Shown here: positions 6,608 through 33,184 of the stretch, piece after piece
Numbering within the stretch: the stretch's first letter is position 1
Layout: each line of letters starts with the position of its first letter
Source: Lentisphaeria bacterium
Lineage (GTDB): Bacteria; Verrucomicrobiota; Lentisphaeria; Victivallales; Victivallaceae
Assembly (NCBI GenBank): GCA_017508135.1
Contig: JAFVZN010000070.1
Coordinates: forward strand, 1,122-65,121
DNA: 64,000 nt
Reading direction: 5' to 3'
Translations under genes and position numbers: made by a program
The notes under the pieces: generated by a model
The model's database searches: none
What the model saw: only the letters and a program-made list of their open reading frames with translations
What the model was told of the DNA's origin: nothing

Positions 6608-7789
6608 TCACTTGCTGAAATCAGCTTTCAATTGTTCGCGGTATCCGGCATCGGTCAGAACTTTCAATCCCACTGCCGCCATCGCCGCCGATGCCTTGTG
6701 CATCTGGCTGAACGCGTAAGGTTTGCCCGAAGCCTCGCACATGGCGGCAGAGTGTCCGGCGATCTCAGTGTGATTTTCGGAAATCCCGATGTAGGGGTGG
6801 ATCGCCGGAACCGCCTGCGAAACGTTCCCGAAATCAGACGAACCGCGACCGGCACCGAAACTCAAATCTACCGGACTGCCCAGCTCTCCGATCTTCTCCA
6901 TCCACACCTGATTCATCAAAGCTGCCGGTTTGCGCGCCTTGGTTCCGGCATTGAACGGCTTGACCTCATATTCAGCTCCGGTCATAAGAGCCGCACCTTT
7001 GACGATATCGAGAAAACGGTCATTCATCTTATCCTGCCACTCCTGCGTTGCGGAACGGACATAAAAACAGCATCCGGCACGGTCGGGAGTGATATTGGGT
7101 TTGAGTCCGCCTTCGGTAACGATACCGTGGATGCGGGAACTTTCCGGAAGCTGCTGCCGCCACGCATTGATACCGGCAAAGAGCAGCTGTACCGCATCCA
7201 GCGCGTTGATCCCCAGATGCGGAGAACCGCTGGCGTGGGAGGCTTTACCCTTGAATACAACATCAAAACGTTTGATGCTCAAACATCCGGTATCCAGCGT
7301 CGTGCGCCATGACGGATGCACCATCATCGCCGCATCGACACCGTCAAGCGCGCCGGAATCGACTATCTTCACCTTGCTGCTGCCGCTCTCTTCGGCGGGG
7401 GTCCCGATCAATACGACTTTACCCGGAATGTTGTTGCGCTTCATATAATCAGTAAGCGCGATAAACGCGCCCAACGCCGCGCCGCAGATAAGATTGTGTC
7501 CGCAGCCGTGACCGATACCGGGCAGTGCATCGTATTCGGAAGTAATGGCAAACGCGGGCGTGCCGCTGCCGTATTCGCAACGGTACGCGGTTTCAAAACC
7601 GCAGTAATTTTCTGTAACTTCAAAACCGTGCTTCTTCAAAAATTCGCACTGAAGTTGGCAAGCGGCGACCTCTTTGAAGGCAAGTTCCGGATTTTTCCAC
7701 ACTTCCATACTGAGCGCATCAAGTTCAGCACCATAGGTTTCTACGATCTGCAAGAGTTGTTGTACTTCACTCATAAAGATATTCCTCAT
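6608..7789 (-). CDS. M20 family amidohydrolase / metallopeptidase
   Basis: 393 aa with EYDALPGIGHGCGHNLICGAALGA, typical of M20D-type amidohydrolases. The ATG at 7789 overlaps the polB stop (ATGA). An alternative ATG at 7774 has an AGGA RBS. Confidence 0.85.
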   Translation of the reverse strand: MRNIFMSEVQQLLQIVETYGAELDALSMEVWKNPELAFKEVAACQLQCEFLKKHGFEVTENYCGFETAYRCEYGSGTPAFAITSEYDALPGIGHGCGHNLICGAALGAFIALTDYMKRNNIPGKVVLIGTPAEESGSSKVKIVDSGALDGVDAAMMVHPSWRTTLDTGCLSIKRFDVVFKGKASHASGSPHLGINALDAVQLLFAGINAWRQQLPESSRIHGIVTEGGLKPNITPDRAGCCFYVRSATQEWQDKMNDRFLDIVKGAALMTGAEYEVKPFNAGTKARKPAALMNQVWMEKIGELGSPVDLSFGAGRGSSDFGNVSQAVPAIHPYIGISENHTEIAGHSAAMCEASGKPYAFSQMHKASAAMAAVGLKVLTDAGYREQLKADFSK

Positions 7790-9780
7790 TTGAATTGTTT
7801 GTATAATTCATCAAGTTTGGCGAGATAATATGCGGTATTTTCATCACGCACCCCGCTTTCCGCATCACTGAGCAGCTTTGAATTGCCCACGACCGGAAGT
7901 TTGGCTTTGCTTCCAGTCACATAGAATTCCACCTTGTCTCCACTGCGGAACTTCTTTCCGGATGCCAGTGCCAGCTCATAAGCGGCAGAACGGCGCGCAC
8001 CGGGTGCGCTCTGTTTGCGCTTGTAATTTTCCGGCGAATCGCTCAACACTTCGCTCTTGGCAAGTTCAGCTATATCTATCGTCCGGGCAGATATGGCATC
8101 GTGCAGTTCACGGTAGCAATTTTCCATTATTTCCGGAGCATCCAGAAGTTTGGAACGCAACACAGCGGAGATGAATTTCCGCTGATATTTTTCCAGCGCG
8201 CGCGATTTCAGCGCGGCACCGGAAACAGAAACAGAGTTGTCCGCATGGAGCAGTGCATAATTTTTGGATTTGTAACAATACATCGCCGGGTATTCAGCAT
8301 CAAAATCAAGTTCGATCCCCGCCGGCAGGACGGATTGTATCTGCGCTTCAAAATCTTCCGGAACCTCCGGCGGCATGGTGAAATATATGCCGTCGGTATC
8401 CATTTCCACTATCTGCGCATCCAGCGAAGAGAGTTTTTCCGCCAGTTTTCCCAGCAGTTCCCGCCCGAAAGCGGTGACACTTTCCGCCAGAGTGCAGTCG
8501 TTGAAACTGCCCTGCGCGAAACCGAGGTAACCGTAAAAGGAGTTTATCAATATTTTAAACGTGGACTGCAGCGCGTTCAACCGCTGTTTTTCCCGTCCTT
8601 CCGGCAACGCTCTGGCCTGATCTTTGGCATCCAGCCGGAACTGCCGCAGCCGGGAGAGCGATTTTAAAAATATCCCAAGCTCATCCCGCGCCGGAGCCTG
8701 ATTCAGATGAAGCAGTATCGACGGATAAAGCGAACGCACATCACAGTGCCGCACCTGATGATAGACTCCCGCCTCTCCCGCTCCGGTCAATGCTCCGGCA
8801 AACCGCCGCGCCTCCTCCGGATAGGGTACGGCATATCCGGCGCGCTGATATTCGGCAATAAAAAACGCATCCAGAGCCGCGCCGCTGCCGCGCAGTACAC
8901 AATCCTGAAAGGTCAGCGGCAAGGTACAGCATTTATAAAAACTTGCCGGAGAAAGCAAATTGGACAACTCCTGCACCGCGCGCGTATCTTCACAACACTC
9001 TATGCCGAAATATTCCCGCAGATAATCCAGTTCAAAACTCTCCATATCCCGGTGCGCGGCATCGTAAAACAATACCAGATGTGCCATGTCGGCAAGCTGT
9101 CTGCCATAAAGATAATAACGGTTGCAGAATATCTGTTTTTCCGCCACGGAAAACCGGCTTTTCCGGGAGGAAAATCCTCCGCCGTTCCGTCCGCAGTCAA
9201 AGGTGAACTTCAACTTTTTCGCCCGTTTTTCCAACAGCGGCAAACCATCTTTGAAGATATTGTAGCCTTCGAGCAGATCGGGGTCACAACTCTTTACCGC
9301 TTCGTTGAACTTCGCCAGCACCGCCGCTTCGCCGCCGCATTCCGCCGTTTCATAACGGGCAAAAAATCCCCGGTTGTCCGCGACTTCGATCGCGGTGATC
9401 TCCGTGCCGTCACCGTTTGCCGCCACAGCGAACTGCATCCGGTGCAGTTCGTGAAAATCCATGCCGGAAAAAAAACGGTTGCCGCTGATACTGAGAAACT
9501 GAGTACTCAACTCCCGCACAGTCAGCACACCTGGACTTTTTTTCACCGTCTCAAGAGCAACTTCATAATCGCTGACACAGTCAAATTCCCACCGGACATT
9601 CAACGGCGCACTACCGGCAAGGGCAACGGCACGTCCTCCGGAAGAAACAACGACCCCTTTCTCCGCAAGCATCCACGGAGAAAAGGGTACGATTTTTTTC
9701 ACACACTCCCCGGCAGCATCACGGCAGAAAATCTCTGCATTCTGCTCTGTTATCTCAACCGCAGTGATACGGTCAATCAT
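7786..9780 (-). CDS. polB: Family B DNA polymerase (Pol II-like), exonuclease motifs degenerate
   Basis: Motif A CDVRSLYPSILL, motif B KILINSFYGYLG and motif C VEMDTDGIYF are present in canonical order. The track ORF starts at GTG 9816 and would overlap the purO stop by 7 nt. I prefer ATG 9780 (MIDRITAVEI), which has a GGAGAG RBS 5 nt upstream. Confidence 0.85.
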   Translation of the reverse strand: MIDRITAVEITEQNAEIFCRDAAGECVKKIVPFSPWMLAEKGVVVSSGGRAVALAGSAPLNVRWEFDCVSDYEVALETVKKSPGVLTVRELSTQFLSISGNRFFSGMDFHELHRMQFAVAANGDGTEITAIEVADNRGFFARYETAECGGEAAVLAKFNEAVKSCDPDLLEGYNIFKDGLPLLEKRAKKLKFTFDCGRNGGGFSSRKSRFSVAEKQIFCNRYYLYGRQLADMAHLVLFYDAAHRDMESFELDYLREYFGIECCEDTRAVQELSNLLSPASFYKCCTLPLTFQDCVLRGSGAALDAFFIAEYQRAGYAVPYPEEARRFAGALTGAGEAGVYHQVRHCDVRSLYPSILLHLNQAPARDELGIFLKSLSRLRQFRLDAKDQARALPEGREKQRLNALQSTFKILINSFYGYLGFAQGSFNDCTLAESVTAFGRELLGKLAEKLSSLDAQIVEMDTDGIYFTMPPEVPEDFEAQIQSVLPAGIELDFDAEYPAMYCYKSKNYALLHADNSVSVSGAALKSRALEKYQRKFISAVLRSKLLDAPEIMENCYRELHDAISARTIDIAELAKSEVLSDSPENYKRKQSAPGARRSAAYELALASGKKFRSGDKVEFYVTGSKAKLPVVGNSKLLSDAESGVRDENTAYYLAKLDELYKQFK

Positions 9781-9809
9781 CTCTGCTCTCCGAAGAATGT
9801 TTACACTAT

Positions 9810-10445
9810 TCAGCACACCAGCGTTGCCAATGCGAAACCATCTTCCGTGGCGATCGCCGCGGCACTGGTGACCGGGTTTTCAAATCCGGCAAAGACACCG
9901 CCGTCAACGACATATTTCACGGCACAATTTTCGCACGCGGCATCAAAGTCGGTATCAACATTGGTATCGCAGGGAGCGTTGCACTCATAGGTGGAGATGT
10001 AACGCGCGACACCCGGTTCCATCTTGAATTCCCGGACCATCACCGCATCTTTGCGGACGATGCCGAGATAACCGAGTTTGGATTCACGACCGGCGACCGC
10101 GACCACACGCGGGGTGTCGAGAGAATCTTTTTCATAATCCATCGCCAGAAGGCACATGGTGATCGCATCGCGCACAGGCATTCCGGCGGCGATCTTTTCG
10201 GTGATGGGGTCAGTCTGGGAACCGTTGGTGGCGATCGCCCACTCTCCGGCTATACGCAGACAGTTGTAGCTGATATACGGATTCTTGGCGAGGTCGCCTT
10301 CGGCACCTTCACGGGGAATGATGGCGATATTGCCGTTATTTTCAACCGCGCGGCGGTTGGGGAAAGAACGGGATGAAACCCGGTACATGGCGCAGGGACG
10401 GCCATCTTTAGTCATTCCGAAAGCAACGATTCTTCCGATATACAT
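9810..10445 (-). CDS. purO: PurO-type (archaeal-type) IMP cyclohydrolase homologue
   Basis: 211 aa. It contains MYIGRIVAFG...YRVSSRSFPNR...NPYISYNC...NGSQTD...LLAMDYEKD, blocks I recognise as conserved in the PurO family (PF07826). GGAGG RBS. Confidence 0.8.
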   Translation of the reverse strand: MYIGRIVAFGMTKDGRPCAMYRVSSRSFPNRRAVENNGNIAIIPREGAEGDLAKNPYISYNCLRIAGEWAIATNGSQTDPITEKIAAGMPVRDAITMCLLAMDYEKDSLDTPRVVAVAGRESKLGYLGIVRKDAVMVREFKMEPGVARYISTYECNAPCDTNVDTDFDAACENCAVKYVVDGGVFAGFENPVTSAAAIATEDGFALATLVC

Positions 10446-10490: not shown

Positions 10491-11042
10491 TTAAAAAAGA
10501 TTTTTCCGGCGGCGGCGCACCTCCTGTGTGGCACGCACCGAGAGCAGTGACAACTGTTCATCCTGCATCTCTTTGCTCATGGCAAGGAAAATTCCCATAA
10601 GTTTGTTTTCTGCGGTCGATAAACTGGAATACTCCGACGGCGCGGCACTGCTGCCGAGCGCAGAGGCAAAACCGGCTATGATCTCCTTCTTTTCCGATTC
10701 CGAAAAGATGGCGAACTCATCCAGCAATATTTTCTGTTCACTGAGCATCTCCACCAGTTCCGGGTGGCGGCGGTAGGCACTGCCGATACGCGGCGGCGGT
10801 TCCGGCATGGGTTCCGGACCTTCAAGGTAGGGCTTCAATGCGGGGTAGACCCGATCCCAGGTTTCTGCCCGGATGGTGCGCACCTTGCGGTCGAGATAAC
10901 GGCGCAGCAGCTCGATCTTCACACCGGAAAGCTGGGAAAGCTCTTCCAGCGAGAGTGCTTCGGCGTAACTGTCAAGTGCGCGGAAAAAATCATTATTCAG
11001 CTTGCGGACTTCGCGCCGTCCGTTTTTATCTGACTGCTCCAT
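10491..11042 (-). CDS. Hypothetical protein with N-terminal helix-turn-helix-like segment
   Basis: 183 aa. LSLEELSQLSGVKIELLRRYL resembles an HTH. The C-terminus is basic (RRRRKNLF). It is tightly packed between neighbouring genes. Confidence 0.6.
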   Translation of the reverse strand: MEQSDKNGRREVRKLNNDFFRALDSYAEALSLEELSQLSGVKIELLRRYLDRKVRTIRAETWDRVYPALKPYLEGPEPMPEPPPRIGSAYRRHPELVEMLSEQKILLDEFAIFSESEKKEIIAGFASALGSSAAPSEYSSLSTAENKLMGIFLAMSKEMQDEQLSLLSVRATQEVRRRRKNLF

Positions 11043-11048
11043 AACAAC

Positions 11049-12638
11049 TTACTCCTTATTCAATACATTGTTGTCCAGAAGTTCCGCCTGCTTTACCAAG
11101 TATTTGAACACATCCATTTTCCACCGGTGTACGGTAAAGAGGAAACTTATAACTCTCCGGCAATGGCCGGGATTTGACAAAGTAAACTGCCGCACCGTTC
11201 CGTCGGTATAAAGCACACACACCCGGTCGGGGTGGGTCCCGCAATCCAGGAGAAGCGGAATATTTTTCTCTTTTGCCAACGCTTTATTGTATCCGAGATA
11301 GAGATATTTTCCATCTTCGGGAAGGTTTTTCGCCGCAACTTTGATTTTGTTCCAACCGACAGCACCGGCTTCGGCCGGGAAAGTGCCGTTATTTTTGGCA
11401 CTGTGATTTTTCAACGCCGCAAAAATCAGCTTCATATTTTTGCGGCAATCCGGCTGAACCTGTTTGGGAACTGCCGCTTTTTTACGCGGTGCAGGGGCTT
11501 TTTTCTCCTGAACAGCGACCTTTTCAGGCATCAACAACCGCTTTTGCCAACGTTCAAGCAATATTTCAAACATCTCTCCGGAGAGATCCTTCCCGCTGTT
11601 CCGCACCAGCAGAATGCCATCATCCGTCCGGGTAAGTACCGAACTTTCCGGCAGAAACTCATCTCCGGCAACAGTTACTCCGGGACGGATATAGAAAAAT
11701 GCACATCCACTCTCCGGCAGATTTTTATTCCATTTGATAAACTCTTTATCATCCTTCAAACGCGGCACACCGGCAGCGGGAGAAAAGATTTTTTCGCCTG
11801 CGGCGGTATCGTAAAAAATGAGTTTTTTATCTTTATGGCACAGTACACCTTTGTCATTCGGCAGCACCACGCGCCGGGAATTCTTATCCACGATGCGATC
11901 CAGATATAACGCTTTGACAACAGCATCAAAGATTTCGCCATTTTCATCGGGAAAGGAGATGGAGAAAGCTCCATCTTCCGGGCCGTACCCCGCTTTCCGG
12001 GAGAACGCAAGCATCGCCCAGCCGTTAGCCTGGTTGAGTACGGAGAGATCGACATTCTTCGGCAGTGCGATCTGAGAAATGAACTGCTGACCGACATCTC
12101 CGGTGGCAATGATCGCATCCAGCACCGCTTTGAGTGAAATATTGACGGCAAGCACCCACTGCACCGATGCGGGCAGTTCGCCGATGACGGCATTGCGCGC
12201 CGCGCTCTCTTTCTGCACAAGAGAGTTCAATAATCCGCTGCTTGCCGGAGGTATGGCGGCAAATACCCGGCTGCGGTAAAAATCAGGAGCAACTTTGACC
12301 GAACTTGCCCCGGCTCCCTGCAAATCGCGGAGTCCGGAAATCTCCCAAAGCAACCGGAAAAGCACCAGATTGCGCTGCATCTCCGCTTTCCGTGCAGCAG
12401 AGAGTTTGAAAGCCGACAATCTCTGTTCAAATTTGAGCGCACTGCGATCCAACACGCGGAAAACGCTCTCACTGTTCCACACCACATAATTGCTGCCGCC
12501 CGCTTCAAGATGCGATGAAATCAGATCAAAACGGACGGAATCAGCATTTTTACGCGCACACCCGGTGAACAGTGCCACTGCCAGCAACAGCACTGCGGAA
12601 AAACTTTTTCTCCAAAAATCCGGATATGCGCGTTTCAT
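11049..12638 (-). CDS. Lipoprotein of unknown function with C-terminal pseudopilin-like (DUF1559 / H-X9-DG) module
   Basis: 529 aa. Lipobox LLAVALFTGCARK. The C-terminal segment reads CRKNMKLIFAALKNHSAKNNGTFP...GTHPDRVCVLYTDGTVRQF, which fits H-X9-DG exactly. Confidence 0.7.
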   Translation of the reverse strand: MKRAYPDFWRKSFSAVLLLAVALFTGCARKNADSVRFDLISSHLEAGGSNYVVWNSESVFRVLDRSALKFEQRLSAFKLSAARKAEMQRNLVLFRLLWEISGLRDLQGAGASSVKVAPDFYRSRVFAAIPPASSGLLNSLVQKESAARNAVIGELPASVQWVLAVNISLKAVLDAIIATGDVGQQFISQIALPKNVDLSVLNQANGWAMLAFSRKAGYGPEDGAFSISFPDENGEIFDAVVKALYLDRIVDKNSRRVVLPNDKGVLCHKDKKLIFYDTAAGEKIFSPAAGVPRLKDDKEFIKWNKNLPESGCAFFYIRPGVTVAGDEFLPESSVLTRTDDGILLVRNSGKDLSGEMFEILLERWQKRLLMPEKVAVQEKKAPAPRKKAAVPKQVQPDCRKNMKLIFAALKNHSAKNNGTFPAEAGAVGWNKIKVAAKNLPEDGKYLYLGYNKALAKEKNIPLLLDCGTHPDRVCVLYTDGTVRQFTLSNPGHCRRVISFLFTVHRWKMDVFKYLVKQAELLDNNVLNKE

Positions 12639-12649
12639 ATTTGCCTGTA

Positions 12650-13654
12650 TTAAAGCAATTCAGCGATCTGCACCGCATTGAGCGCAGCCCCCTTGAGGAG
12701 CTGGTCGCCGGAAACAAACATTTCGATACCGCGTTTGTCGTTACGGGAGATATCCTGACGGATACGACCGGCAAGTACATCATACTTTTCAGTGGCATCG
12801 ACGGGCATCGGATAACGCTTGGCTTCCGGATCATCGACCACGGTCACGCCGGGAGCGGCTTCCAGAATGGCGCGAACCTCTTCCGGAGTGATCTCATCTT
12901 CAAACTCCATGTTCAAAGATTCGGAGTGGGCGCGCAGTGCCGGAATACGGACACTGGTGCAGCTGAGCATCAGATCCGGAATGTGCAGCATCTTGCGGGA
13001 TTCGTTGACCATCTTCAACTCCTCTTTGGTGTAGCCGTTGGCACAGAAGGAGTCGATGTGGGGAATCAAGTTGAAAGCGATGCGATGGGCAAACGCTTTG
13101 GGATCGATAGCTTCGCCGTTGAGGATCTGCCGGGTCTGTTCGATCAGTTCCTGCATACCTTTGGCACCGGCACCGCTGGCTGCCTGATAGGTGGAAGCGA
13201 CCAGACGGCGGAGTTTTTTGGCGCGATGCAGCGGAGCGACAGCGACCAGCATGATCGCGGTGGTGCAGTTGGGGTTGGCGATAACGCCGTTGTGTCCGGC
13301 GACATCTTCGGGGTTGACTTCGGGCACGACCAGCGGAACATCATCCTCCATGCGGAAGGCACTGGAGTTATCGACCATCACCGCGCCGGAATCGACCACG
13401 ATCTGACGGTAGGCACGGGAAATATCGCCGCCGGCAGAAAAGAGAGCGATGTCAACTCCTTTGAAAGAGTTTTCAGTCATCTCTTCAATAACCAGCTTTT
13501 CACCGCGGAACTCCATAGTTTTACCGGCGGAACGGGCAGAAGCCAGAAGTTTAAGATTTTTCACCGGAAAATTACGTTTTTCCAGCGTTTTGACCATTTC
13601 GACGCCGACTGCACCAGTGGCACCGGCAACAGCAACAGTGTAGCTTTTTGACAT
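12650..13654 (-). CDS. asd: Aspartate-semialdehyde dehydrogenase
   Basis: 334 aa with VAVAGATGAVG, the active-site region IANPNCTT, and a typical overall length. Confidence 0.95.
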   Translation of the reverse strand: MSKSYTVAVAGATGAVGVEMVKTLEKRNFPVKNLKLLASARSAGKTMEFRGEKLVIEEMTENSFKGVDIALFSAGGDISRAYRQIVVDSGAVMVDNSSAFRMEDDVPLVVPEVNPEDVAGHNGVIANPNCTTAIMLVAVAPLHRAKKLRRLVASTYQAASGAGAKGMQELIEQTRQILNGEAIDPKAFAHRIAFNLIPHIDSFCANGYTKEELKMVNESRKMLHIPDLMLSCTSVRIPALRAHSESLNMEFEDEITPEEVRAILEAAPGVTVVDDPEAKRYPMPVDATEKYDVLAGRIRQDISRNDKRGIEMFVSGDQLLKGAALNAVQIAELL

Positions 13655-13732: not shown

Positions 13733-13761
13733 AATATAGTTCTCTTGGTTGAAAAATTCAA
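13733..13761 (-). promoter_or_regulatory. Putative sigma70-type promoter for asd
   Basis: The minus strand reads TTGAAT, 17-nt spacer, TATATT. It lies 79 nt upstream of the asd ATG and interdigitates with the ligA promoter. Confidence 0.4.
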
Positions 13762-13777
13762 TCTCAAGAGTTATATT
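13749..13777 (+). promoter_or_regulatory. Putative sigma70-type promoter for ligA
   Basis: TTGAAA (13749-13754), 17-nt spacer, TATATT (13772-13777). It lies 42 nt upstream of the ATG at 13819. Confidence 0.5.
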
Positions 13778-13818: not shown

Positions 13819-15708
13819 ATGACCGCTTTTGAACCGGAAAAAATGACGATCTCTCAACTTGAAGAGCAGATAAAATATCACGATCAGCGTTACTGGGATG
13901 CCAATGCCCCGGAGATAAGCGATGCCGATTACGACCGGCTGGTCGAAGCTCTGCGAAAACTTGACCCCGGTCACGAACTGGTGAACCTTGTCCACGCAGT
14001 CACAGTGGAAAGTTCCGGAAAAGTCCGCCACGCCGAACCCATGCTCTCTCTGGACAAGGCCTACTCTCTGGAAGCTGTTCTGGAATGGGCAAACAAATAT
14101 GCCCGCTCCCCCCGGGAAATCCTGCTGGTCGAACCCAAGTACGACGGCATCTCCGCCGGTTTCGATGGAACCATCCTCGCCACCCGGGGCGACGGCGACA
14201 CCGGAGAAAACATCTCCGACAAGCTCCCGCTGATCGAACTGGAAGCCCCCGGCTACACCGGAAAAGTCGACCGCCCCGCCCGGGGGGAGATCATCATCCG
14301 GAACGACGACTTCAAAAACCTCTACTCCTCCATCACCAAAAAAGGCGGCGGCACTTACAAAAATTCCCGCAACGCCGTCGCCGGTATCATGGGGTTGAAA
14401 GATATCTCCGGAATGCTCATCCAGAAAGCCAAACTCACTCTGGTCGATTACCGGCTTATCTCCACGCAAGTCACCCTTGAGGAACTTCCGCGCCGCTGGG
14501 AGGAGTTGAAGCTGGAGCTTGCGGAACTGCCCTACCCGATGGACGGTATCGTTTTGAAGTTCGCCGATGAAGAGTTCCGCCGGAGCCTGGGCTCCACCGC
14601 CCATCATCCCCGGGGGGAGATCGCCTACAAGTTCACAAATTTGAAGTGCCGGACAACTCTGGTCGGCATCGAATGGAGCTTCGGCAAAAACTGCCTCACT
14701 CCGGTAGCGCAGCTGGAACCGGTCGACCTCTCCGGCATCACCATCAAACGGGCTTCTCTGCACAACGCACAGAATATCGAAGATATGCAGATAATGATCG
14801 GTGATACCGTAACTGTTGAACGCGCCGGTGATGTCATACCTTATATCAGTGCCAGTTCCCCCGGCTTGTTCCGCTCCTCCCCGTGGATAACCAAGTGCCC
14901 ATCCTGCGGCACCGCACTGAGCCGGCGCGGACCGGAGCTGTGCTGTACCAACAGAGATTGCCCGGAAACGGTACTCTTCAACCTCCTTGCCGCCGTCCGG
15001 AACTTCGGCATTGAACGGCTGGGGGAACCGACCCTGCGGAAACTCATGGAAAAGTTCCACATCACCAAACTCCACGAAATATTGACGTTGACCGCAGATG
15101 ACCTTATGCAAATAGAAGGCTTCAAAGAGCGCAGTGCCGGCAACCTTGCCAGAGAGATATCAAAGAGCAGACAGGCTCCGGAGGCAAACATCATCGCCGC
15201 CTTGAACATCCCCAATGTCGGCATAAACATCGCCGCACTTCTGCTGGAAAACTATTCCATATCCGAACTGCGCGCCCTTGATGAGGATACCCTTTCCGCC
15301 ATTCCCGGCATCGGTCCGGAACGTGCCGGAGCCATCGTGGAGAGCTTCGCGTCCGGCGGAGAGGATATCGACCGTCTGCTGGCAGTGACCACTCCGCTCC
15401 GGCAGCAGAACAGTTCCGGCGATGCTCCGACGATATGCTTTACCGGAAAGATGCCCGAAAAACGCTCCTTTTATGAAAATCTCGCCAAATCCCGCGGTAT
15501 GCGCCCGGTGGATACCGTATCTTCAACGTTGTCTTACCTTGTCGCCGCCGACCCGGCGTCCGGCAGTTCCAAGCTGAAAGCCGCCGCAAAATTCAACGTC
15601 ACCATCCTCTCTCTGGATGAATTTCTCTCCGGTGAAACGCCGGAACTTCCGCCGGAAGAAAAACCGGAGGAGCCCAACGCCGCCTGGGAGCGGGGTGAAC
15701 TTTTCTGA
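13819..15708 (+). CDS. ligA: NAD-dependent DNA ligase
   Basis: 629 aa. It has the adenylation motif VEPKYDGIS, TRGDGDTGENIS, the Zn finger CPSCGTALSRRGPELCCTNRDCPE, HhH repeats and a C-terminal BRCT-like region. Confidence 0.95.
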   Translation: MTAFEPEKMTISQLEEQIKYHDQRYWDANAPEISDADYDRLVEALRKLDPGHELVNLVHAVTVESSGKVRHAEPMLSLDKAYSLEAVLEWANKYARSPREILLVEPKYDGISAGFDGTILATRGDGDTGENISDKLPLIELEAPGYTGKVDRPARGEIIIRNDDFKNLYSSITKKGGGTYKNSRNAVAGIMGLKDISGMLIQKAKLTLVDYRLISTQVTLEELPRRWEELKLELAELPYPMDGIVLKFADEEFRRSLGSTAHHPRGEIAYKFTNLKCRTTLVGIEWSFGKNCLTPVAQLEPVDLSGITIKRASLHNAQNIEDMQIMIGDTVTVERAGDVIPYISASSPGLFRSSPWITKCPSCGTALSRRGPELCCTNRDCPETVLFNLLAAVRNFGIERLGEPTLRKLMEKFHITKLHEILTLTADDLMQIEGFKERSAGNLAREISKSRQAPEANIIAALNIPNVGINIAALLLENYSISELRALDEDTLSAIPGIGPERAGAIVESFASGGEDIDRLLAVTTPLRQQNSSGDAPTICFTGKMPEKRSFYENLAKSRGMRPVDTVSSTLSYLVAADPASGSSKLKAAAKFNVTILSLDEFLSGETPELPPEEKPEEPNAAWERGELF

Positions 15709-18776: not shown

Positions 18777-19940
18777 ATGAAAAAGTTTTTCTCACTGTTC
18801 GCTCTGGCAGCAGCAGTGTTATCATTTCATGCACTCAGAGCAGAAGATGATACCGAACCGGCACACGAATGTACCAGTTGGATGGTGTTCAGCAACCTGA
18901 CCAAAAACAACACCAACATTCTGCACAAAAACCGCGATTCCAAGATCCGTAACATCGCCGCATATATGAGTGCCCCCGGCACCAAACGCAAGTGGATCGC
19001 CATCGGCAACGCCTCCACCAACTCCGGCGTAAACTCTTCCGGTCTTGCCGGTGCCATGAACAGCGGAGAAAAAACTCCCGATGAACCCAACCCCAAGGGG
19101 CAGGGCAGAAAAGGTACAGTAGAACTGCTTGAAATCATTCTCAACAGTTGCGACACTGCGGCGCAGGCAGTCGCCAAACTCAAAGAGATGGTCGTTGATA
19201 AAAAAGATTATTACCACGGCGATCACGGTTCGACCTTCTTTTTCCTGGACACCAAAGAGGGGTATATTTGCGAATTCACCCCGAAATATTTCACCGTTCA
19301 GCGGTGTGAAAAAGATTACGCGCTCCGCGCCAATATCTGGCAGAACCCCGGAATGCAGTCCCGCGCCAGAGGCTCTTTTCTCACCTATCTTCACAGCAGT
19401 ACCCGGGCATACACAGTTCTTTCCAGCTTGAACAACGCTCTGGATACCAACGGTAAAATCACCGTCAAAGATATTATCGCTCTCTCCCGCAACAACACGC
19501 TGCCCAAAGGTGCTGAAAAGAAGTATCTGGTCTGCAACAAACGTACCAACTCCGGCAACACCATGGAGATCGACATCCAGTATCCGGATGTCCTTTCCAG
19601 CTGTTACTTCACCCTCGGTTATCCCCGTCACACCATCTGTCTGCCGATGCCCGTCTGTGTTGAAAAGATCCTGCCTTCCATGCAGACTTACATTTGGTCA
19701 AAGGCGGCGTTTGCCCGCTTTGACAAACTTGGTACCGATGTGGAAATCCCGGCAGAATGGCAGAAGTTTGAAGCTGATGCCATGACAAAATATGCCGCTG
19801 CCAAAGTGCAGGCGCGCAAACTTCTTGCCCTCGGCAAGCGCGCTGAAGCGATCAAACTGCTCAACACGACGGCTTACGGAATTTGGACTCAGGCAGAAGC
19901 TCTGTTGAAACCGGCAGCGGCAACAACTGTTACCAAGTAA
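18777..19940 (+). CDS. Secreted Ntn-hydrolase-like protein (peptidase C69 / choloylglycine-hydrolase-like)
   Basis: 387 aa. A signal peptide is followed by AHECTSWMVF...ILHKNRDSK, i.e. Cys-Thr followed by an NRD box as in Cys-nucleophile Ntn hydrolases. It is a paralogue of the partial CDS at 1..550. Confidence 0.75.
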   Translation: MKKFFSLFALAAAVLSFHALRAEDDTEPAHECTSWMVFSNLTKNNTNILHKNRDSKIRNIAAYMSAPGTKRKWIAIGNASTNSGVNSSGLAGAMNSGEKTPDEPNPKGQGRKGTVELLEIILNSCDTAAQAVAKLKEMVVDKKDYYHGDHGSTFFFLDTKEGYICEFTPKYFTVQRCEKDYALRANIWQNPGMQSRARGSFLTYLHSSTRAYTVLSSLNNALDTNGKITVKDIIALSRNNTLPKGAEKKYLVCNKRTNSGNTMEIDIQYPDVLSSCYFTLGYPRHTICLPMPVCVEKILPSMQTYIWSKAAFARFDKLGTDVEIPAEWQKFEADAMTKYAAAKVQARKLLALGKRAEAIKLLNTTAYGIWTQAEALLKPAAATTVTK

Positions 19941-19955
19941 GCAAGGAGAAATAAA

Positions 19956-20864
19956 TTGCACAACTTGTCGAAACAGCAAATGTCAAAATTTTCTCCGGCG
20001 GTATACTTTTGTACCGCCGTTTTGCTGTTGCTGTCGGCATCTCTTCCGGCACAAGCGGCAAAGAAAGTCTGGACACGCGGTCTGAAGTCCCGGAATTATA
20101 ATTTCTATATTTACGATTCCAGAAAAAATCTGTTCCGCAAAGTACTCAACAATCTGGAAAATGCCCGCTCCCAATTTGAACTTTTTCTGCCGCCGCCGCC
20201 CGGAGTTGTTCCGGAACGGGGAATAGTAAATATATACCGTACCCGGCAGCAGTACCTGGCTGCAGTCGGAAAAGAGTTCAGTTGGAGTTCCGGTGTCTGG
20301 AACGGCAAGACCCTTGAAATCTCCCCGCCCCCCGGCGAAGGCAGCCGGAACGCCTACCGCAAGTACACGTCAACTGTCATCTACCATGAAGGTTTCCATC
20401 AATATCTTGCCTCCATTCTGGAAAACAACGTGATGCCCGGCATGTGGTTCAACGAAGGCAGTGCGCAGGTTTTTGAAGATATTCAAAACAGCGGCAATAT
20501 CGCGATTCCGCGCAAAAAAGAAAATGAGCTTGCCCTGGCGGTCAGGATGTTCCACGGAGATTTGTACACCTTTATGAAAAAAGATTACAAGCAGTTCTAT
20601 GAAGAAAAGAGCCGTAATCTCAACTACCGTTTTGCCAACGCTTTGATGTTCTACCTCTACGTTGGCGCCGCATCGGAAAAATCTCCGTTTGCCAGGCTTC
20701 CAATCCGCTATGTTCATCTGCTCAGGCAGTACCGCGACCAGTTCAAGGCACTGAATGTCCTGAAAAAAGAGTTCGATTTCAAACAGCTTGAACGCGAATT
20801 TCGCGCGTTCTGGAGTTCAACCTCCCGGATAAACCGGGCGCGCCGTTACCGGAAACAGCCATGA
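19956..20864 (+). CDS. Secreted hypothetical protein with HEXXH zinc-metallopeptidase motif
   Basis: 302 aa. TTG start with AAGGAG 7 nt upstream; an alternative ATG is at 19980. It has a signal peptide and the motif IYHEGFHQY. Its stop overlaps the recQ start (ATGA). Confidence 0.7.
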   Translation: MHNLSKQQMSKFSPAVYFCTAVLLLLSASLPAQAAKKVWTRGLKSRNYNFYIYDSRKNLFRKVLNNLENARSQFELFLPPPPGVVPERGIVNIYRTRQQYLAAVGKEFSWSSGVWNGKTLEISPPPGEGSRNAYRKYTSTVIYHEGFHQYLASILENNVMPGMWFNEGSAQVFEDIQNSGNIAIPRKKENELALAVRMFHGDLYTFMKKDYKQFYEEKSRNLNYRFANALMFYLYVGAASEKSPFARLPIRYVHLLRQYRDQFKALNVLKKEFDFKQLEREFRAFWSSTSRINRARRYRKQP

Positions 20865-22876
20865 ATTCTCTGCCTGATTTGGAAAATTTGTTGCGGAAAT
20901 ATTTCGGCTTTGACGGTTTTCTCGACCACCAGAAGGATGTGGTCCGGCGCATTACCGCCGGAGAAAATCTCTGTGTCGTCATGCCGACCGGTGCCGGAAA
21001 GTCGCTCTGTTATCAACTTCCGGCGATGCTGAACAACTCCTACACGCTGGTCATCTCCCCGCTTATCGCCCTGATGGCGGATCAGGTGGCGGCACTGCGG
21101 CGGCACAATATTCCTGCGGCATTTATCAACAGTTCCATCAGCTTTGCCGAACAGCTTGATGCCGTGAGAGAAACTGAAAGCGGCAGAATAAAACTTCTCT
21201 ATGTCGCACCGGAACGGCTGCAGACCGACTTCTTTTACGACTTCCTCTGCCGGAACAAGCCGGATATGCTGGTGGTGGACGAAGCGCACTGCATAAGCGA
21301 ATGGGGACATGATTTCCGCCCGAGCTACCGCCGGATAGGTGCGATCGCGGAAAATGCGGGGATCAAACATATATGCGCTTTCACCGCCACGGCAACGCCG
21401 GAGGTGTGTGCCGATATCGCCGTCCAGCTCCGCGCTCCGGAGATGCAGCTGGTCGCCGCCGGATTCCGCCGTCCCAATCTCTCTTTTAAAGTGCAGGAGT
21501 GCAAAGGCGGCAGAGAAGCCAAACTTTCCGTCATAAAAAAGCTGCTGGAAAAAAGAAAAGACGGTGCCGTCATCATCTATGCCGCCACCCGGCAGGCGGT
21601 GGATGAACTCTCCTCTCTGCCCGATGTCCGGGGTTATCACGCCGGAATGAGCAACGAAGAACGCAACGATGCGCAGAAATATTTTATGACCCACCCGGCA
21701 CCGGTGCTGGCGGCAACCAACGCTTTCGGCATGGGTATCGACCGGCCGGACGTGCGGATGGTCATCCATTACCAGCTGCCGGGCTCGCTGGAAGCCTATT
21801 ATCAGGAGGCGGGCAGAGCCGGACGTGACGGGGAAAGTGCCGAATGTATTTTGCTTTTCAGTTACGCTGACCGCTACATCCAGAGCTTCCTTATTGAGAT
21901 GAACAATCCGCCGCCGGGAGTGATCCGCTCGGTTTACCGTACCATCCGGGCGTTATGCAGTGCCTCCCCCCATGCGGCACTGGAAATAAGTGCCGCCGAA
22001 TTGCAGAAACATATTCCGGAAGCGGCAAGTGACGGTCAGATTTCTGCGGCATTGGGGATATTGGAAAAATCCGGAGCCATCATCCGCAAATCCCGCCAGA
22101 CCGGTACCGGCAAGCTCAGATTCATTCAGGACACCGACTCTCTCCGTGTTCTGCATCAGGAGGAAAAGACTCAGCGTTCACGTTTCATCCACCGCATGAT
22201 CGGGCGTTACGGCACGGCATTAAAGAAGCCGCTTCCCGTGAACGTCGACGTGATGGCAGAAATCTGTCAACTCACCCCGGAACAGATCAAACGGGTGATA
22301 AACGCACTCAACAACGACGTTCTGCTCTGGGAGAGCGGCTTTTCCGGCAGAGCGATCGAACTTGCCGACTGCAATATGGTCGAAGCTCCGCTGGATGATA
22401 AAGAGTTGAACTTCCGCCGCGAATATGAAGAACAGCGGCTCAATGCCGTTATCCGTTACGCCTCAAGCTCCGACTGCCGCCAGAAGGAGCTTATCGGTTA
22501 CTTCGGAGAAAAGCCGGACAACTGGCAGTGCAACAGCTGCGACAACTGTTCCGGCCATTCCCCGGAAGCGTTGCACGCACAGGGCATAAGTGATGACGAT
22601 ATCCGTGTGGCACTCCGTGGAGCGGAACTTTTCAACGGCAGAATAGGTGCGGTCAAACTTGCCCAGATCCTGGCGGGCAGCCGCAGTGCCGGTATCATCG
22701 CCGGAAACTACCACCGGAACGTCTGTTTCGGCGCATTGCGGAAATTGAAGGTGACCCGCGTGGAGGAACTTATCCGCTCGTTGATCTCATCCGGGTTACT
22801 GGAACGAATTGAGCGCGGCGGTTATCCCTGCATCCGTCTCTCCGCCGCCGGGAAAGCCAAACTTTACGGCAGCTGA
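20861..22876 (+). CDS. recQ: ATP-dependent DNA helicase RecQ
   Basis: 671 aa with PTGAGKSLCYQLP, DEAHCISEWGHDFRPSY, QEAGRAGRDG and a Zn-binding Cys cluster. Confidence 0.95.
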   Translation: MNSLPDLENLLRKYFGFDGFLDHQKDVVRRITAGENLCVVMPTGAGKSLCYQLPAMLNNSYTLVISPLIALMADQVAALRRHNIPAAFINSSISFAEQLDAVRETESGRIKLLYVAPERLQTDFFYDFLCRNKPDMLVVDEAHCISEWGHDFRPSYRRIGAIAENAGIKHICAFTATATPEVCADIAVQLRAPEMQLVAAGFRRPNLSFKVQECKGGREAKLSVIKKLLEKRKDGAVIIYAATRQAVDELSSLPDVRGYHAGMSNEERNDAQKYFMTHPAPVLAATNAFGMGIDRPDVRMVIHYQLPGSLEAYYQEAGRAGRDGESAECILLFSYADRYIQSFLIEMNNPPPGVIRSVYRTIRALCSASPHAALEISAAELQKHIPEAASDGQISAALGILEKSGAIIRKSRQTGTGKLRFIQDTDSLRVLHQEEKTQRSRFIHRMIGRYGTALKKPLPVNVDVMAEICQLTPEQIKRVINALNNDVLLWESGFSGRAIELADCNMVEAPLDDKELNFRREYEEQRLNAVIRYASSSDCRQKELIGYFGEKPDNWQCNSCDNCSGHSPEALHAQGISDDDIRVALRGAELFNGRIGAVKLAQILAGSRSAGIIAGNYHRNVCFGALRKLKVTRVEELIRSLISSGLLERIERGGYPCIRLSAAGKAKLYGS

Positions 22877-26020: not shown

Positions 26021-27136
26021 ATGAAAATCGTTGCCGATGACAAAATTCCGTACCTCAAAGGAGTATTGGAACCTTACGCCGAAGTGGTCTACCTTCCCGG
26101 CGGCAAAATCTCCCCCGCCGACCTCGCGGATGCCGATGCCCTTATCACCCGGACCCGCACCAGGTGTGACCGCCAGCTGTTGGAAAACTCTTCCGTAAAA
26201 CTGGTCGCCACCGCCACTATCGGCATCGACCATATCAACACCGCCGAACTTGATTCTCTCGGAATAAAATACTGCAACGCCCCCGGCTGTAACGCCGCCA
26301 GTGTAAAAAATTACATCGCAAGCGCGCTGGCTGTTCAAAACCGCGATCTGTCAAATCTGACACTGGGTATCATCGGTGCCGGTCACGTCGGGAAACTGGT
26401 CGCCGAAGCCGCAACTGCTATGGGGATGAAAGTTTTACTCAACGATCCGCCGCGCGCCGATGCGGAGGGGAAAGAAGCATTTACCGGATTGGATGAACTT
26501 CTCAAAGTTTCCGATGTGGTGACCATGCACGTTCCGCTGGAACACGGCGGAAAGTATCCGACGGTAAATATGGCAGATGCGGAATTTTTCGCAAAAATGA
26601 AAGACGGCGCATACTTTTTCAACAGCTGCCGCGGCGAAGTGATGGTCAAAGAGGCGTTCCTTGCCGCCAGAAATTCCGGAAAAATTGCCGGAGCATTGAT
26701 CGACGTCTGGCCGGAAGAACCGGAACTTGATCCCCGTCTGGTGCAGGCGGTGGAGATCGGTACGCCGCACATAGCCGGGTATTCCAAAGAGGGCAAAGCC
26801 AACGGAACTGCGGCAAGTATCCGCGCTGTGGCAGAGTTTTTCGATCTGCCCGCGTTGAAAGATTTTCAGCTTCCGCCGGGAACTTTGCCGGATCCGGTGT
26901 TTCCGGGATCCATTGAACTTGATCGCACCCTGCCGCTGTGGCAGCAGATAAACCGCGCGATACTCCATGTTTATGATGTACGCAGCGATGCCGCCGCGCT
27001 TTCCGGTGCGCCGGAGAAGTTTGAAGAGCTGCGCGGCGGATATTGGAACCGCCGGGAGTTTTCTGCATTTACCGTATACGGAGCATCGGCAGAGGCGCAG
27101 CGCGCACTTGCCGTTTTAGGATTCAACATTGGGTGA
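26021..27136 (+). CDS. pdxB: 4-phosphoerythronate dehydrogenase
   Basis: 371 aa starting MKIVADDKIPYL. It has the NAD site GIIGAGHVG and a PdxB-type C-terminal dimerisation region. Confidence 0.85.
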   Translation: MKIVADDKIPYLKGVLEPYAEVVYLPGGKISPADLADADALITRTRTRCDRQLLENSSVKLVATATIGIDHINTAELDSLGIKYCNAPGCNAASVKNYIASALAVQNRDLSNLTLGIIGAGHVGKLVAEAATAMGMKVLLNDPPRADAEGKEAFTGLDELLKVSDVVTMHVPLEHGGKYPTVNMADAEFFAKMKDGAYFFNSCRGEVMVKEAFLAARNSGKIAGALIDVWPEEPELDPRLVQAVEIGTPHIAGYSKEGKANGTAASIRAVAEFFDLPALKDFQLPPGTLPDPVFPGSIELDRTLPLWQQINRAILHVYDVRSDAAALSGAPEKFEELRGGYWNRREFSAFTVYGASAEAQRALAVLGFNIG

Positions 27137-27141
27137 GCTGT

Positions 27142-28062
27142 ATGAAAATTTTTAACAACATTCTCGAAACCGTCGGCACCACTCCGCTGGTCAAAATCAA
27201 CAAACTCAACCGCACCACCGCGGAGATCGTTGCCAAAATCGAATCGTTCAACCCCGGCGGTTCCGCCAAAGACCGGGTCGGTATCGCCATGATCGAAGCC
27301 GCTGAAAAAGCCGGTCTCCTCGCCCCCGGCGGCTTGATAATCGAACCCACCAGCGGCAATACCGGTGTCGGTCTGGCTCTGGCGGCGGCGATAAAAGGTT
27401 ACCGTCTTATTCTCACCATGCCCGATTCCATGAGCGTGGAACGGCGCAAACTTCTGGCGGCATACGGTGCGGAAATCGTTCTCACTCCCGGGGAGGGCGG
27501 AATGAATGCCGCCATCGCCAAAGCGGAGGAACTCCACCGCGCCAATCCCGGTTCCATCATTCCGGCACAATTCAGCAACCCCGCCAATCCGGATATCCAC
27601 CGCCGCACCACCGCTCAGGAGATCATCGCGGATACCGATGGCGATATCGCCGCGTTCGTTGCCGGTGTCGGCACCGGCGGAACGCTGACCGGTATCGGAG
27701 AGGTTCTCAAAGAACTGAACAAAGATATCAAAATCATCGCCGTTGAACCTGATTGCAGTGCCGTCATCTCCGGCAAAGCTCCCGGAGTGCATAAACTTCA
27801 GGGTATCGGCGCCGGGTTTATCCCGGATATATTGAACACCGCCATCATCGACGAAGTCGTTCCCGTCAGTGCGGACGATGCCGGAAAAACGGCGCGCGCC
27901 GCCGCGCGTGAAGAAGGTTTGCTCATCGGTATTTCCGGTGGAGCCGCCCTCTTTGCCGCCTGTGAGATCGCCAGGCGGCAGGAGTTTGCCGGAAAGCGTA
28001 TCGTTGTCCTGCTCCCGGATTCCGGCGAACGGTATCTTTCCACATGGTTGTTTGCGGATTGA
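27142..28062 (+). CDS. cysK: Cysteine synthase A (O-acetylserine sulfhydrylase)
   Basis: MKIFNNILETVGTTPLVKINKL, SFNPGGSAKDR, PTSGNTGVGLA. The track ORF (27043) carries a spurious N-terminal extension that overlaps pdxB. Confidence 0.95.
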   Translation: MKIFNNILETVGTTPLVKINKLNRTTAEIVAKIESFNPGGSAKDRVGIAMIEAAEKAGLLAPGGLIIEPTSGNTGVGLALAAAIKGYRLILTMPDSMSVERRKLLAAYGAEIVLTPGEGGMNAAIAKAEELHRANPGSIIPAQFSNPANPDIHRRTTAQEIIADTDGDIAAFVAGVGTGGTLTGIGEVLKELNKDIKIIAVEPDCSAVISGKAPGVHKLQGIGAGFIPDILNTAIIDEVVPVSADDAGKTARAAAREEGLLIGISGGAALFAACEIARRQEFAGKRIVVLLPDSGERYLSTWLFAD

Positions 28063-28094
28063 CCGCAACACCTTGAAAAGCCGATTAAAAAAAC

Positions 28095-28126
28095 TCGTGA
28101 ACAGTGCGCTGTCCACGAATTTTTTT
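28095..28126. terminator. Bidirectional rho-independent terminator between cysK and the MATE gene
   Basis: Stem tcgtgaacag / ctgtccacga (9 of 10 pairs) with a 4-nt loop. It is followed by T7 on the plus strand and preceded by A7 (a T-run on the minus strand). Confidence 0.7.
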
Positions 28127-31242: not shown

Positions 31243-32292
31243 TTATCTCTCCTGACGTAAAAATTCGATGATTGCAAGCGGGGAGACGACCACTCCGCCG
31301 AATGACGGATATTTGCGGAAATGCTTCCCGGCATAATCCAGCGCACGGCAGAAATCGTTCCAGTCCCGGCGGCGCAGTTTACCACGCTCTTCCGAAACAT
31401 GACCGGCAAGCGGAATGACCAGAAGCAAAGGAACATTGCCGCCGGCTTTCAACTCATCTTCCACTTTTTTCACCAGCTGTGTCGGCACGTTTCCGCTGTT
31501 GATGATCATGACTTTGCCCAGCTTCTGAAAATCGGCAATACTACCGATACTGAGTTTGCCTTCAACAGCGTTCTGATGATAAAAGTCGTGTATCGCCAGC
31601 TTCAGCGGCGGCAACGATGGAAGTCGGGAGATCTTCTTCAACTGCTCATAGGTGTCGCGCATAAGCATATCATTATCCTGCCCGATACCGTAACGCTCTT
31701 CGCTCCAGGCATAAAGTTTGCCGTGGGAACGTTCCACGTTGGCATTGGTATAGCAGTGCGGTTCGACCACGACAGTCAATCCGGCAAGTTTTTTCACATC
31801 CTCCGGCAGATCACTGTTGAAGTCGATGACCTTGCGGACAACATCGCTCAGTCCGGGATAAGCCGGCAGCAGCGGCCGCAGCAGACGGTTGCTGTGATTC
31901 ACCCGGTAGTAGTCCCGCTGAAAGATAACTGTTTCCGCAGGAATACCTCTCTTCCCCAGAGCCCGGAGCAGTTCAATGAATGAATCGTTCAACGCGCGCT
32001 CAGTGGTAATACAGCAATATGCCCGGTTGAAACCGAGTTCAGCGATGCGTTCAGCAACACTGTCGGCACTGAAACGGTTTTCAAACGCCTCCGGATAGAT
32101 ACCGACACCGCGCTCCGGAAACGCTCCGGTGATGGCGCGGAACTGTTTTATCCGGGCGGCGGTGACATGATTTTCGGCAAGGTTTGCCGGGGTCGCACCC
32201 GGAGTTATATGGCGCGCAGGCGTGGAACACCCTCCACAAAGCACAACACCTGCAATAACAGCAAGTGCGGCAGTCAGCGTTCTCATTTTCAC
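31243..32292 (-). CDS. Hypothetical lipoprotein
   Basis: 349 aa. Lipobox GVVLCGGCSTP. Its stop directly abuts the nrdR start, and its start overlaps the upstream MBL gene stop by 4 nt. Confidence 0.7.
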   Translation of the reverse strand: MKMRTLTAALAVIAGVVLCGGCSTPARHITPGATPANLAENHVTAARIKQFRAITGAFPERGVGIYPEAFENRFSADSVAERIAELGFNRAYCCITTERALNDSFIELLRALGKRGIPAETVIFQRDYYRVNHSNRLLRPLLPAYPGLSDVVRKVIDFNSDLPEDVKKLAGLTVVVEPHCYTNANVERSHGKLYAWSEERYGIGQDNDMLMRDTYEQLKKISRLPSLPPLKLAIHDFYHQNAVEGKLSIGSIADFQKLGKVMIINSGNVPTQLVKKVEDELKAGGNVPLLLVIPLAGHVSEERGKLRRRDWNDFCRALDYAGKHFRKYPSFGGVVVSPLAIIEFLRQER

Positions 32293-33164: not shown

Positions 33165-33184
33165 TGCTCAAAATCTCCCGTAAC

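Follow-up and report, generated by a model that had tools for sequence, protein, structure and literature searches.

A Lentisphaeria family-B DNA polymerase with conserved polymerase motifs, a lesioned exonuclease site and no C-terminal tail

The polB gene and its product

The stretch of DNA analysed here (the window) covers 64 kb of the chromosome of an uncultured gut Lentisphaeria bacterium and encodes a short family-B DNA polymerase (PolB) on its minus strand. The gene, polB, occupies positions 7786-9780 including the stop codon and codes for a protein of 664 amino acids, as indicated by the list of open reading frames, a match to the Pfam profile PF00136 and the starts of homologous proteins. 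The open reading frame itself (7786-9816, minus strand) contains an alternative in-frame GTG start at 9816, which would give a product of 676 amino acids and overlaps the stop codon of the upstream gene purO. The ATG at 9780 is preceded, at a distance of 5 nucleotides, by the hexamer GGAGAG (9786-9791, minus strand), which reads as a Shine-Dalgarno-like sequence within the 29-nucleotide purO-polB spacer, and the 120 database homologues listed, among them P0001 with 664 amino acids and 100% identity, all begin with the corresponding internal methionine. Because these three observations favour the ATG, 7786-9780 was taken as the gene, and residue numbers refer to the 664-amino acid protein. The best-named homologues stem from metagenome-assembled genomes of uncultured Lentisphaeria and Victivallaceae of animal guts. 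The original prediction, which had been made from the DNA alone, described a PolB open reading frame with an intact polymerase and a lesioned exonuclease; this observation is real, and the peptides quoted for it (8745-8710, 8400-8392, 9438-9409, 9267-9223 and 9072-9046) all translate exactly as given.

The polymerase core is complete. Motif A, CDVRSLYPSILL (8710-8745, minus strand), contains the string DVRSLYPS with the catalytic Asp and the steric-gate Tyr and is invariant in all homologues. It is followed by motif B, KILINSFYGYLG (8521-8556, minus strand), which was identified from the translation and the family alignment, by motif C, VEMDTDGIYF (8380-8409, minus strand), which keeps both Asp residues (DTD, 8400-8392) and a Glu that marks the G3/PolεN-like clade, and by the KxY block YKSKNYAL (8251-8274, minus strand), whose K, K, N, Y and A are invariant in homologues. 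The four motifs are invariant in at least 196 homologues and follow the order of the family B consensus. Alignment with two Pfam profiles had been suggested as a check: in a hidden Markov model (HMM) search, PF00136 matches the polB product (E=5e-23), while PF03104, the exo1 profile, reaches 20.5 bits, which is under its cutoff of 23, and aligns with the Exo II region only. An AlphaFold2 model of the 664-amino acid protein, built with 50 homologues, has a mean predicted local distance difference test (pLDDT) value of 92.3, a predicted template modelling (pTM) score of 0.84 and no region below 50. In Foldseek comparisons, it superposes on the polymerases of 9°N, KOD and Tgo with template modelling (TM) scores of 0.79-0.81 over about 770 columns, and the N-terminal, exonuclease-fold, palm, fingers and thumb domains are all present. 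Motifs and predicted structure together show the polB product to be a full-length primer-dependent family-B DNA polymerase. The invariant motifs, the confident fold model and the low substitution ratio given below also bear out the original claim that the motifs are canonical and that the protein looks polymerase-competent.

The exonuclease site presents a different picture. Its register was checked in three ways: with HMMER against the KOD and Deep Vent polymerases, with MAFFT against exonuclease-intact homologues, and with hhalign by comparing a profile of 30 short proteins of the clade of the window protein with a profile of 18 long, active ones (100% probability, 665 columns). The exonuclease-intact (active) relatives, which are 43-47% identical over 98% of the length, are found in Victivallis vadensis, other Victivallales, Verrucomicrobiota and Kiritimatiellota and carry MQFDIET, GHNIFRFDLPY and LLxYALDDVRET in the family alignments. 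The three approaches agree on the lesions, and the Exo II register is the same against KOD and Deep Vent. At Exo I, the remnant MQFAVAA (9418-9438, minus strand) places A118 in the Asp column and A120 in the Glu column and is followed by an 11-residue deletion. The Exo II remnant GYNIFKDGLPLLEKR (9223-9267, minus strand) aligns D178 with the Phe and G179 with the catalytic Asp. Both sites had been called degenerate in the original prediction, with Gly in the Asp column of Exo II, and all three alignments support this. Loss of Exo III had also been claimed and holds, whereas its assignment to LFYDAAHRD (9072-9046) does not: this string belongs to the block FYDAxHRxLES, which is conserved in active and lesioned forms alike, and the true Exo III of the active forms lies about 40 residues downstream. 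There, the window protein carries the scar ECCED (8986-9000, minus strand), which both the alignments and the helices of the models identify as the site of a 26-residue deletion. The motif was thus deleted rather than degraded in place; the deletion took RTYVxGxxIxxxWxxDRxxLLxYAL, with the Tyr of Y-x3-D and a preceding helix among it. In the model of an active protein (P0093), this region forms two helices (297-306 and 308-337), and the model of the window protein has a single helix there (265-284).

The same columns are relaxed throughout the main clade of Lentisphaeria proteins with lesioned sites. In the Exo I columns, all 103 active homologues have D and E, whereas this clade is variable there and at every other exonuclease residue that is 100% conserved in the active forms. 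A search for a replacement acidic column found none that is conserved in the exonuclease domain of the clade; the newly conserved columns hold leucines only. The Asp of Exo II is kept in 43 of the 71 clade sequences of the first survey. Gap placement at the ECCED scar is ambiguous, and MAFFT sets E264-D265 under the DD of YALDD; among close relatives, however, the column of D265 holds D, E, L, I, Q or A and is not maintained. With its catalytic residues replaced or deleted and no conserved acidic substitute, the exonuclease site of the window protein appears to be dead, as had been proposed, and proteins with such lesions are called exo-dead in the following. The short length of the protein had originally been measured against E. 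coli Pol II. This yardstick is unsuitable, as Pol II belongs to another clade (E ~1e-10, and the GWN signature of Pol II is lacking in the window family); the appropriate comparison is with the exo-intact relatives of about 720-760 amino acids, and the main dead clade spans 644-690 amino acids. The difference of 66 residues to the active P0093 (730 amino acids) is made up of 37 residues deleted at the exonuclease site, 12 residues of C-terminal tail and small N-terminal insertions and deletions.

The missing tail is a second loss, which the original prediction did not notice. The C-terminal peptide QLGLF of E. coli Pol II is a known clamp-binding peptide, and it aligns with the ends of active proteins of the Planctomycetes-Verrucomicrobia-Chlamydiae (PVC) group, namely QPDLF, EPGLF(D), ELSLF, DDLFAGL and QDSLF. 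In the window protein, the stop codon directly follows the last helix, YYLAKLDELYKQFK (7789-7830, minus strand), so that the protein ends in LDELYKQFK, and a survey of tails revealed that most proteins of the main clade likewise end at this helix. Among 115 active proteins, 102 have a tail of at least 8 amino acids, 54 have L[FLI] within the last five residues and 22 match the strict pattern QxxL[FL]; in the main Lentisphaeria dead clade (n=76), the corresponding numbers are 16, 0 and 0. The last ten residues of the active P0093 model are unstructured, with pLDDT values below 50 for residues 726-730, as expected of a linear docking motif. The exo-dead forms of Verrucomicrobia retain tails (e.g., QETLAL, QADLFA). 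An internal clamp motif was also considered for the window protein; the sole QxxL[FL]-like string, QDCVL, lies in a buried core block that is conserved in all forms and was rejected. A beta-clamp binding motif has been ascribed to the G3 group of bacterial PolBs (PMC12926913).

Recurrent loss of proofreading and selection on polB

A first survey of 196 sequences was used to build neighbour-joining trees on polymerase-plus-thumb columns with 60 bootstraps. The exo-dead proteins of Lentisphaeria form one clade of 71 members, or amount to 77 when the small groups P0056/58/64/L009 and P0057/L011, which are set apart in the tree, are included. This main clade was monophyletic in 43 of 60 bootstraps; all dead forms never grouped together (0/60). 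Separate exo-dead groups include one that is the sister of the V. vadensis group, and Verrucomicrobiota (Chthoniobacterales) contain three or more; the lesions vary by group: Exo III is deleted in some, and in others the segment is retained with substitutions (FRRRALCGVRET). A number of Verrucomicrobiota loci, mostly of Chthoniobacterales (L046, L054, L058, L063-L065, L074-L076, L078 and L079), represent independent exo-dead lineages with a clamp-type tail. In two of these, L074 and L063, the lesions are minimal (DIQ for DIE, Tyr to Cys) and the sister L057 is intact, which looks like a snapshot of early inactivation.

The family was also searched exhaustively with phmmer in 1.84 billion representatives of 50%-identity clusters, which yielded 390 proteins at E<=1e-30. 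Among the best 150 of these 390, 123 are full-length, and 41 of the 123 (within P0121-P0266) are exo-dead with intact polymerase motifs. When Fitch parsimony was applied to a neighbour-joining tree, the root came out as active, with at least 18 state changes and 20 maximal all-dead clades. The number of losses is approximate because the trees are neighbour-joining trees of the polymerase domain only; the conclusion that loss of proofreading is recurrent in this PolB family, and not a one-off accident, stands. The original prediction had called the combination of a competent polymerase and a dead exonuclease unusual for bacteria. This is true when measured against the published description of the G3 group, but exo-dead G2/PolB2 enzymes were already known, and in metagenomic data about a third of the nearest cluster representatives are exo-dead. 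These 41 representatives contradict the published generalisation that exonuclease sites are conserved in G3. A second, intact copy of the PolB family in the genomes of the dead clade was not seen among at least 80 listed GTDB loci, each of which comes from a different assembly, although this is a weak observation.

The dN/dS ratio (nonsynonymous to synonymous substitutions) was determined with an 86%-identical polB orthologue on a 204-kb contig (L082) as reference. The value for the whole gene is 0.096, with 0.15 for the N-terminal domain, 0.12 for the exonuclease domain, 0.075 for palm and fingers and 0.06 for the thumb; the neighbouring genes gave 0.14 (ligA), 0.12 (M20 amidohydrolase) and 0.009 (purO). 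It has thus been shown that polB is under purifying selection and not decaying. These data bear directly on the idea that the protein is a decaying relic, either because its gene is on the way to becoming a pseudogene or because it is a structural protein without polymerase activity. Its reduced length compared with P0093, the loss of three functional elements and its faster evolution than that of purO (86% identity to the closest genome for PolB, 99.5% for PurO) are compatible with decay. About 77 clade members, however, spanning identities down to about 45%, have an intact reading frame, the polymerase motifs are all invariant, selection is strongest in palm, fingers and thumb, and a confident full-length fold is predicted; the idea is effectively refuted. 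Decay in related genomes had been named in the original prediction as an observation that would overturn it, and the comparison came out against decay.

A further feature was observed in the 5' coding region of polB, where an RNA hairpin of 16 bp is predicted at 9653-9688 of the minus strand (-27 kcal/mol, z = -5.2). L082 has the same stem arms despite a polB dS of about 0.87; as a feature of the whole family the hairpin was rejected, since it was not found in more distant orthologues.

The exonuclease domain evolves differently in the two kinds of protein. At matched divergence of the polymerase domain, the ratio of exonuclease to polymerase p-distances is 1.4-1.8 in the dead clade and 0.6-0.9 in active proteins, so that, relative to the polymerase domain, the exonuclease domain of the dead clade evolves about twice as fast as in active relatives. 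Relaxed exonuclease columns together with a faster rate are the pattern expected of a catalytic domain that has been reduced to a scaffold. It could be argued instead that proofreading is kept, either because non-canonical residues of the remnant domain supply it or because a DnaQ-like protein or a phosphoesterase of the Metallophos superfamily acts in trans. Bacterial Pol III relies on a trans-acting proofreader, the exonuclease-fold domain is retained and under selection (dN/dS 0.12), more than half of the clade members of the first survey keep the Exo II Asp, D265 may occupy the Asp column of Exo III, and in one genome (L084) a Metallophos gene lies 16 nucleotides downstream of polB. Such retention is nevertheless improbable: both Exo I carboxylates are lost, the clade has no conserved acidic column in their place, the Exo II Asp of the window protein is Gly, the Tyr and part of the helix of Exo III are deleted, the domain evolves at the doubled relative rate, and neither the Metallophos nor the UvrD neighbour occurs in more than one lineage.

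Genomic neighbourhood

The window has a uniform GC content throughout and encodes DUF711, an oxidoreductase, asd, ligA, a RecQ-like helicase, fmt, RNase G, ispG, rseP, folD, cdsA, pgi and others. polB is part of a co-directional array that runs from 13654 down to 4477 and consists of asd (12650-13654, minus strand), a 529-amino acid open reading frame, a 183-amino acid open reading frame, purO, polB, M20 and DUF2079, with intergenic gaps ranging from overlap to 45 nucleotides. At its head, asd is divergent from ligA, which encodes the NAD-dependent DNA ligase (13819-15708, plus strand); the 164-nucleotide spacer between the two contains the best sigma-70-like sites of the region, arranged back to back at 13733-13777. 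Downstream of polB, the gene for an M20-family amidohydrolase (6608-7789, minus strand) overlaps the polB stop codon with its first ATG (ATGA) and is kept as a neighbour only in the closest relative. The original prediction that polB is chromosomally fixed in a string of housekeeping genes is supported by the array and by its conserved position in relatives. The housekeeping genes, the even GC content and the persisting purO-polB pair point to a chromosomal, vertically inherited gene. The two open reading frames upstream of purO-polB are 91% (183 amino acids) and 67% (529 amino acids) identical in the closest relative and were not seen in more distant loci.

This context also bears on whether the enzyme derives from a mobile element, a phage or a defence system, e.g., as a protein-primed or primer-independent polymerase, a casposon polymerase or part of a defence island. 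PolBs are common in mobile elements, and a viral entry of G3 into bacteria has been suggested (PMC7544198). The window protein, however, possesses the N-terminal domain and in structure matches primer-dependent B3 enzymes of archaea best; PADLOC gave one spurious match, to a homing-endonuclease model, and no link to a defence system, and the neighbours are housekeeping genes with conserved synteny and a flat GC profile. Such an origin is therefore most improbable, and the N-terminal domain, the B3-like folds and the housekeeping context likewise led to rejection of the phi29, casposon and piPolB types.

The gene immediately upstream, purO, encodes an archaeal-type inosine monophosphate (IMP) cyclohydrolase of 211 amino acids (9810-10445, minus strand; PF07826, 198 bits; NCBIfam equivalog, 229 bits with a cutoff of 150). 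It lies 8-29 nucleotides upstream of polB in the window and in L002-L007, L030 and L082-L086, where the other surroundings differ. The pairing persists down to about 45% PolB identity, and purO is the sole neighbour that is conserved across the main dead clade; it was not seen upstream of polB at any exo-intact locus, nor in the dead lineages L027/L040, L009 and L011. A role of PurO as a partner of the polymerase is disfavoured by its equivalog score and by its far slower evolution. The adjacency would most simply reflect inherited co-transcription, with hitch-hiking in an operon rather than a functional partnership.

Two other neighbours were noted in single genomes. In L084, a gene for a Metallophos phosphoesterase (7991-8920), which belongs to the superfamily of the PolD DP1 proofreader, lies 16 nucleotides downstream of the exo-dead polB, and in L086 a gene for a UvrD-like helicase (8056-10101) follows within 12-16 nucleotides. 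Both were rejected as trans-acting factors because each is confined to one lineage. Elsewhere in the window, the RecQ-like helicase (20861-22876, plus strand; 671 amino acids) contains about 180 residues between Helicase_C, which ends at about residue 324, and the RecQ Zn-binding domain, which starts at about 507, a distance longer than usual. Ten open reading frames of 183-529 amino acids lack a Pfam match (10491-11042, 11049-12638, 18777-19940, 19956-20864, 26971-28116, 31243-32292, 32265-33203, 42212-43102, 44525-46042 and 54037-55254); two of these are the frames of 183 and 529 amino acids in the polB array.

Proposed function and relation to known polymerases

The likely reading of these data is that polB encodes an exo-dead, tail-less G3 PolB that still polymerises and is used for short-patch, error-tolerant synthesis. 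The enzyme would synthesise DNA without proofreading and, having lost the tail, would probably work off the beta clamp and act distributively on short stretches, while the exonuclease domain would be kept as a structural scaffold of the DNA-binding cleft. Expression from the asd...purO-polB array would be constitutive. The most likely job would be the error-tolerant filling of repair gaps or extension past lesions or mismatches, and not that of a replicase; the role in gap filling or translesion synthesis (TLS) proposed in the original prediction is plausible.

Several points weigh against this reading. That the enzyme polymerises, is devoid of exonuclease activity and does not depend on the clamp is deduced from sequence. 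The alignment of D265 with the Exo III Asp may mean that one of four carboxylates survives in the window protein. The tail motif of the active relatives is called clamp-type by its resemblance to QLGLF of Pol II and to the QxxLF consensus; a clear L[FLI] end is missing from roughly half of the active proteins, and some, including P0097 of V. vadensis, have no such end at all. The window protein may also contact the clamp through an internal or non-canonical site. Finally, the number of independent losses is approximate, as stated above.

A narrower job has also been considered, namely that PolB substitutes for Pol I and serves as a constitutive gap filler in Okazaki fragment maturation and excision repair, together with a stand-alone flap endonuclease (FEN) of the 5'-3' exonuclease type and LigA, in genomes lacking polA. 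The location of polB in the housekeeping array asd-...-purO-polB-M20-DUF2079 divergent from ligA, with promoter-like sites in the asd/ligA spacer, would fit such a job, as would purifying selection comparable to that on ligA and, weakly, the lack of a second copy of the family among the listed GTDB loci. A significant fraction of Verrucomicrobia lacks Pol I but has a stand-alone FEN, and proofreading is often dispensable in Pol I orthologues (PMC12926913). The report on the absence of Pol I, however, covers Verrucomicrobia and not Lentisphaeria, and exo-intact orthologues occur in sister lineages without an obvious difference in genomic context. A Pol I substitute is unlikely, and it would refine rather than contradict the role in short-patch, error-tolerant synthesis. 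A more general version would hold that G3 PolBs of the PVC group repeatedly shed proofreading, and those of the Lentisphaeria clade also the clamp tether, because they were recruited as constitutive short-gap polymerases that replace Pol I where polA is lacking; this is a tentative proposition and rather doubtful. If the Pol I-replacement reading were true, bacteria would have a parallel to the way in which eukaryotes divide labour among their B-family polymerases.

G3 is the second-largest group of bacterial PolBs, and the literature files it as high-fidelity, processive and clamp-using. Against this picture, a substantial share of the metagenomic diversity of the family has dropped proofreading while the polymerase site is still selected, and in one large clade associated with guts the clamp tail is gone as well; the repeated loss of proofreading, here combined with that of the tail, is the most interesting part of the analysis. 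The pattern suggests that bacterial B-family enzymes other than PolB2 have also arrived, more than once, at an error-tolerant role. The natural pairs of orthologues with and without exonuclease site, and with and without tail, at about 45% identity could be used to probe the function of G3, and naturally exo-minus mesophilic PolBs may serve as enzyme scaffolds.

The G3 (PolεN-like) group has been described as experimentally uncharacterised, with conserved exonuclease and polymerase sites and a beta-clamp motif (Timinskas et al. 2026, PMC12926913), and the conserved Glu of motif C unites PolεN, B10 and G3 as a synapomorphy (Kazlauskas et al. 2020, PMC7544198). The published surveys of G3 used mostly complete genomes (PMC7544198, PMC12926913). 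In the portions of the supplement text accessible for these two papers, neither Lentisphaerae nor Victivallis was found, and a literature search for exo-dead G3 enzymes and for PolBs of Lentisphaerae or Verrucomicrobia found nothing beyond the two papers. In the present family, the Glu (ExDTDG) is conserved throughout, including the window protein. Among 50,697 phage records, the only relatives are the PolBs of Salinibacter phages (E=7e-78, 90% coverage) and of Nostoc/Anabaena phages, which are the two phage exceptions assigned to G3 (PMC7544198). The Salinibacter phage PolB is colinear with the active PVC forms and has the DIET-FPNP loop and the YAMDDVYET block in common with them. The window PolB therefore groups with the bacterial G3 PolBs, a placement made indirectly via the motif C Glu, the phage matches and the colinear alignment. 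It shares the N-terminal/exonuclease-fold/polymerase architecture and the motif C Glu with G3, and its exo-intact, ~45%-identical relatives have Exo I, II and III of the G3 type and a QxxLF-like tail; the window lineage, in contrast, differs from published G3 by the loss of the exonuclease catalytic residues and of the C-terminal clamp-type motif.

The best functional analogy is provided by G2 and archaeal PolB2, which likewise show no conserved Exo I and lack Exo III, and for which an error-tolerant role has been proposed; PolB2/G2 is considered a TLS extender (PMC12926913). G2/B2 enzymes, however, have a single Asp and a His in motif C, a compensating D(K/R) motif and a predicted mutasome with two partners, whereas in the window protein the DTD is complete and motifs A and B are canonical, and no partner gene other than purO is conserved beside polB at the dead-clade loci compared. 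The DTD with both Asp residues rules out a G2/PolB2 identity, as G2 has a motif C with a single Asp (PMC7544198); the D(K/R) motif itself was not specifically searched. Since the closest relatives are exo-intact G3 forms, the exonuclease loss in the window lineage is independent of that in G2/B2, convergent and more recent.

E. coli Pol II (G1) resembles the window protein as a chromosomal accessory family-B polymerase, and its QLGLF aligns with the tails of the active relatives. It differs by its active exonuclease, its clamp motif, its length of 783 amino acids and the GWN in Exo II, a signature that marks the G1/Pol II-like clade (PMC7544198); the window family has GYN or GHN. A G1 identity was rejected on this ground and on the match to Pol II, which reaches only E ~1e-10 at 21% identity. 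A vestigial 3'-5' exonuclease fold that has lost its carboxylates and serves as a scaffold is likewise found in the catalytic subunits of Pol α and Pol ζ, in actinobacterial PolA2/APEX and in exo-dead Pol I orthologues. These enzymes belong to other families or clades, and PolA2 gained a clamp motif in its vestigial domain, whereas the window lineage lost one. Compared with all these systems, the window PolB represents a variant of the G3 PolB group that is derived and had not been described before; it is not a new kind of enzyme.

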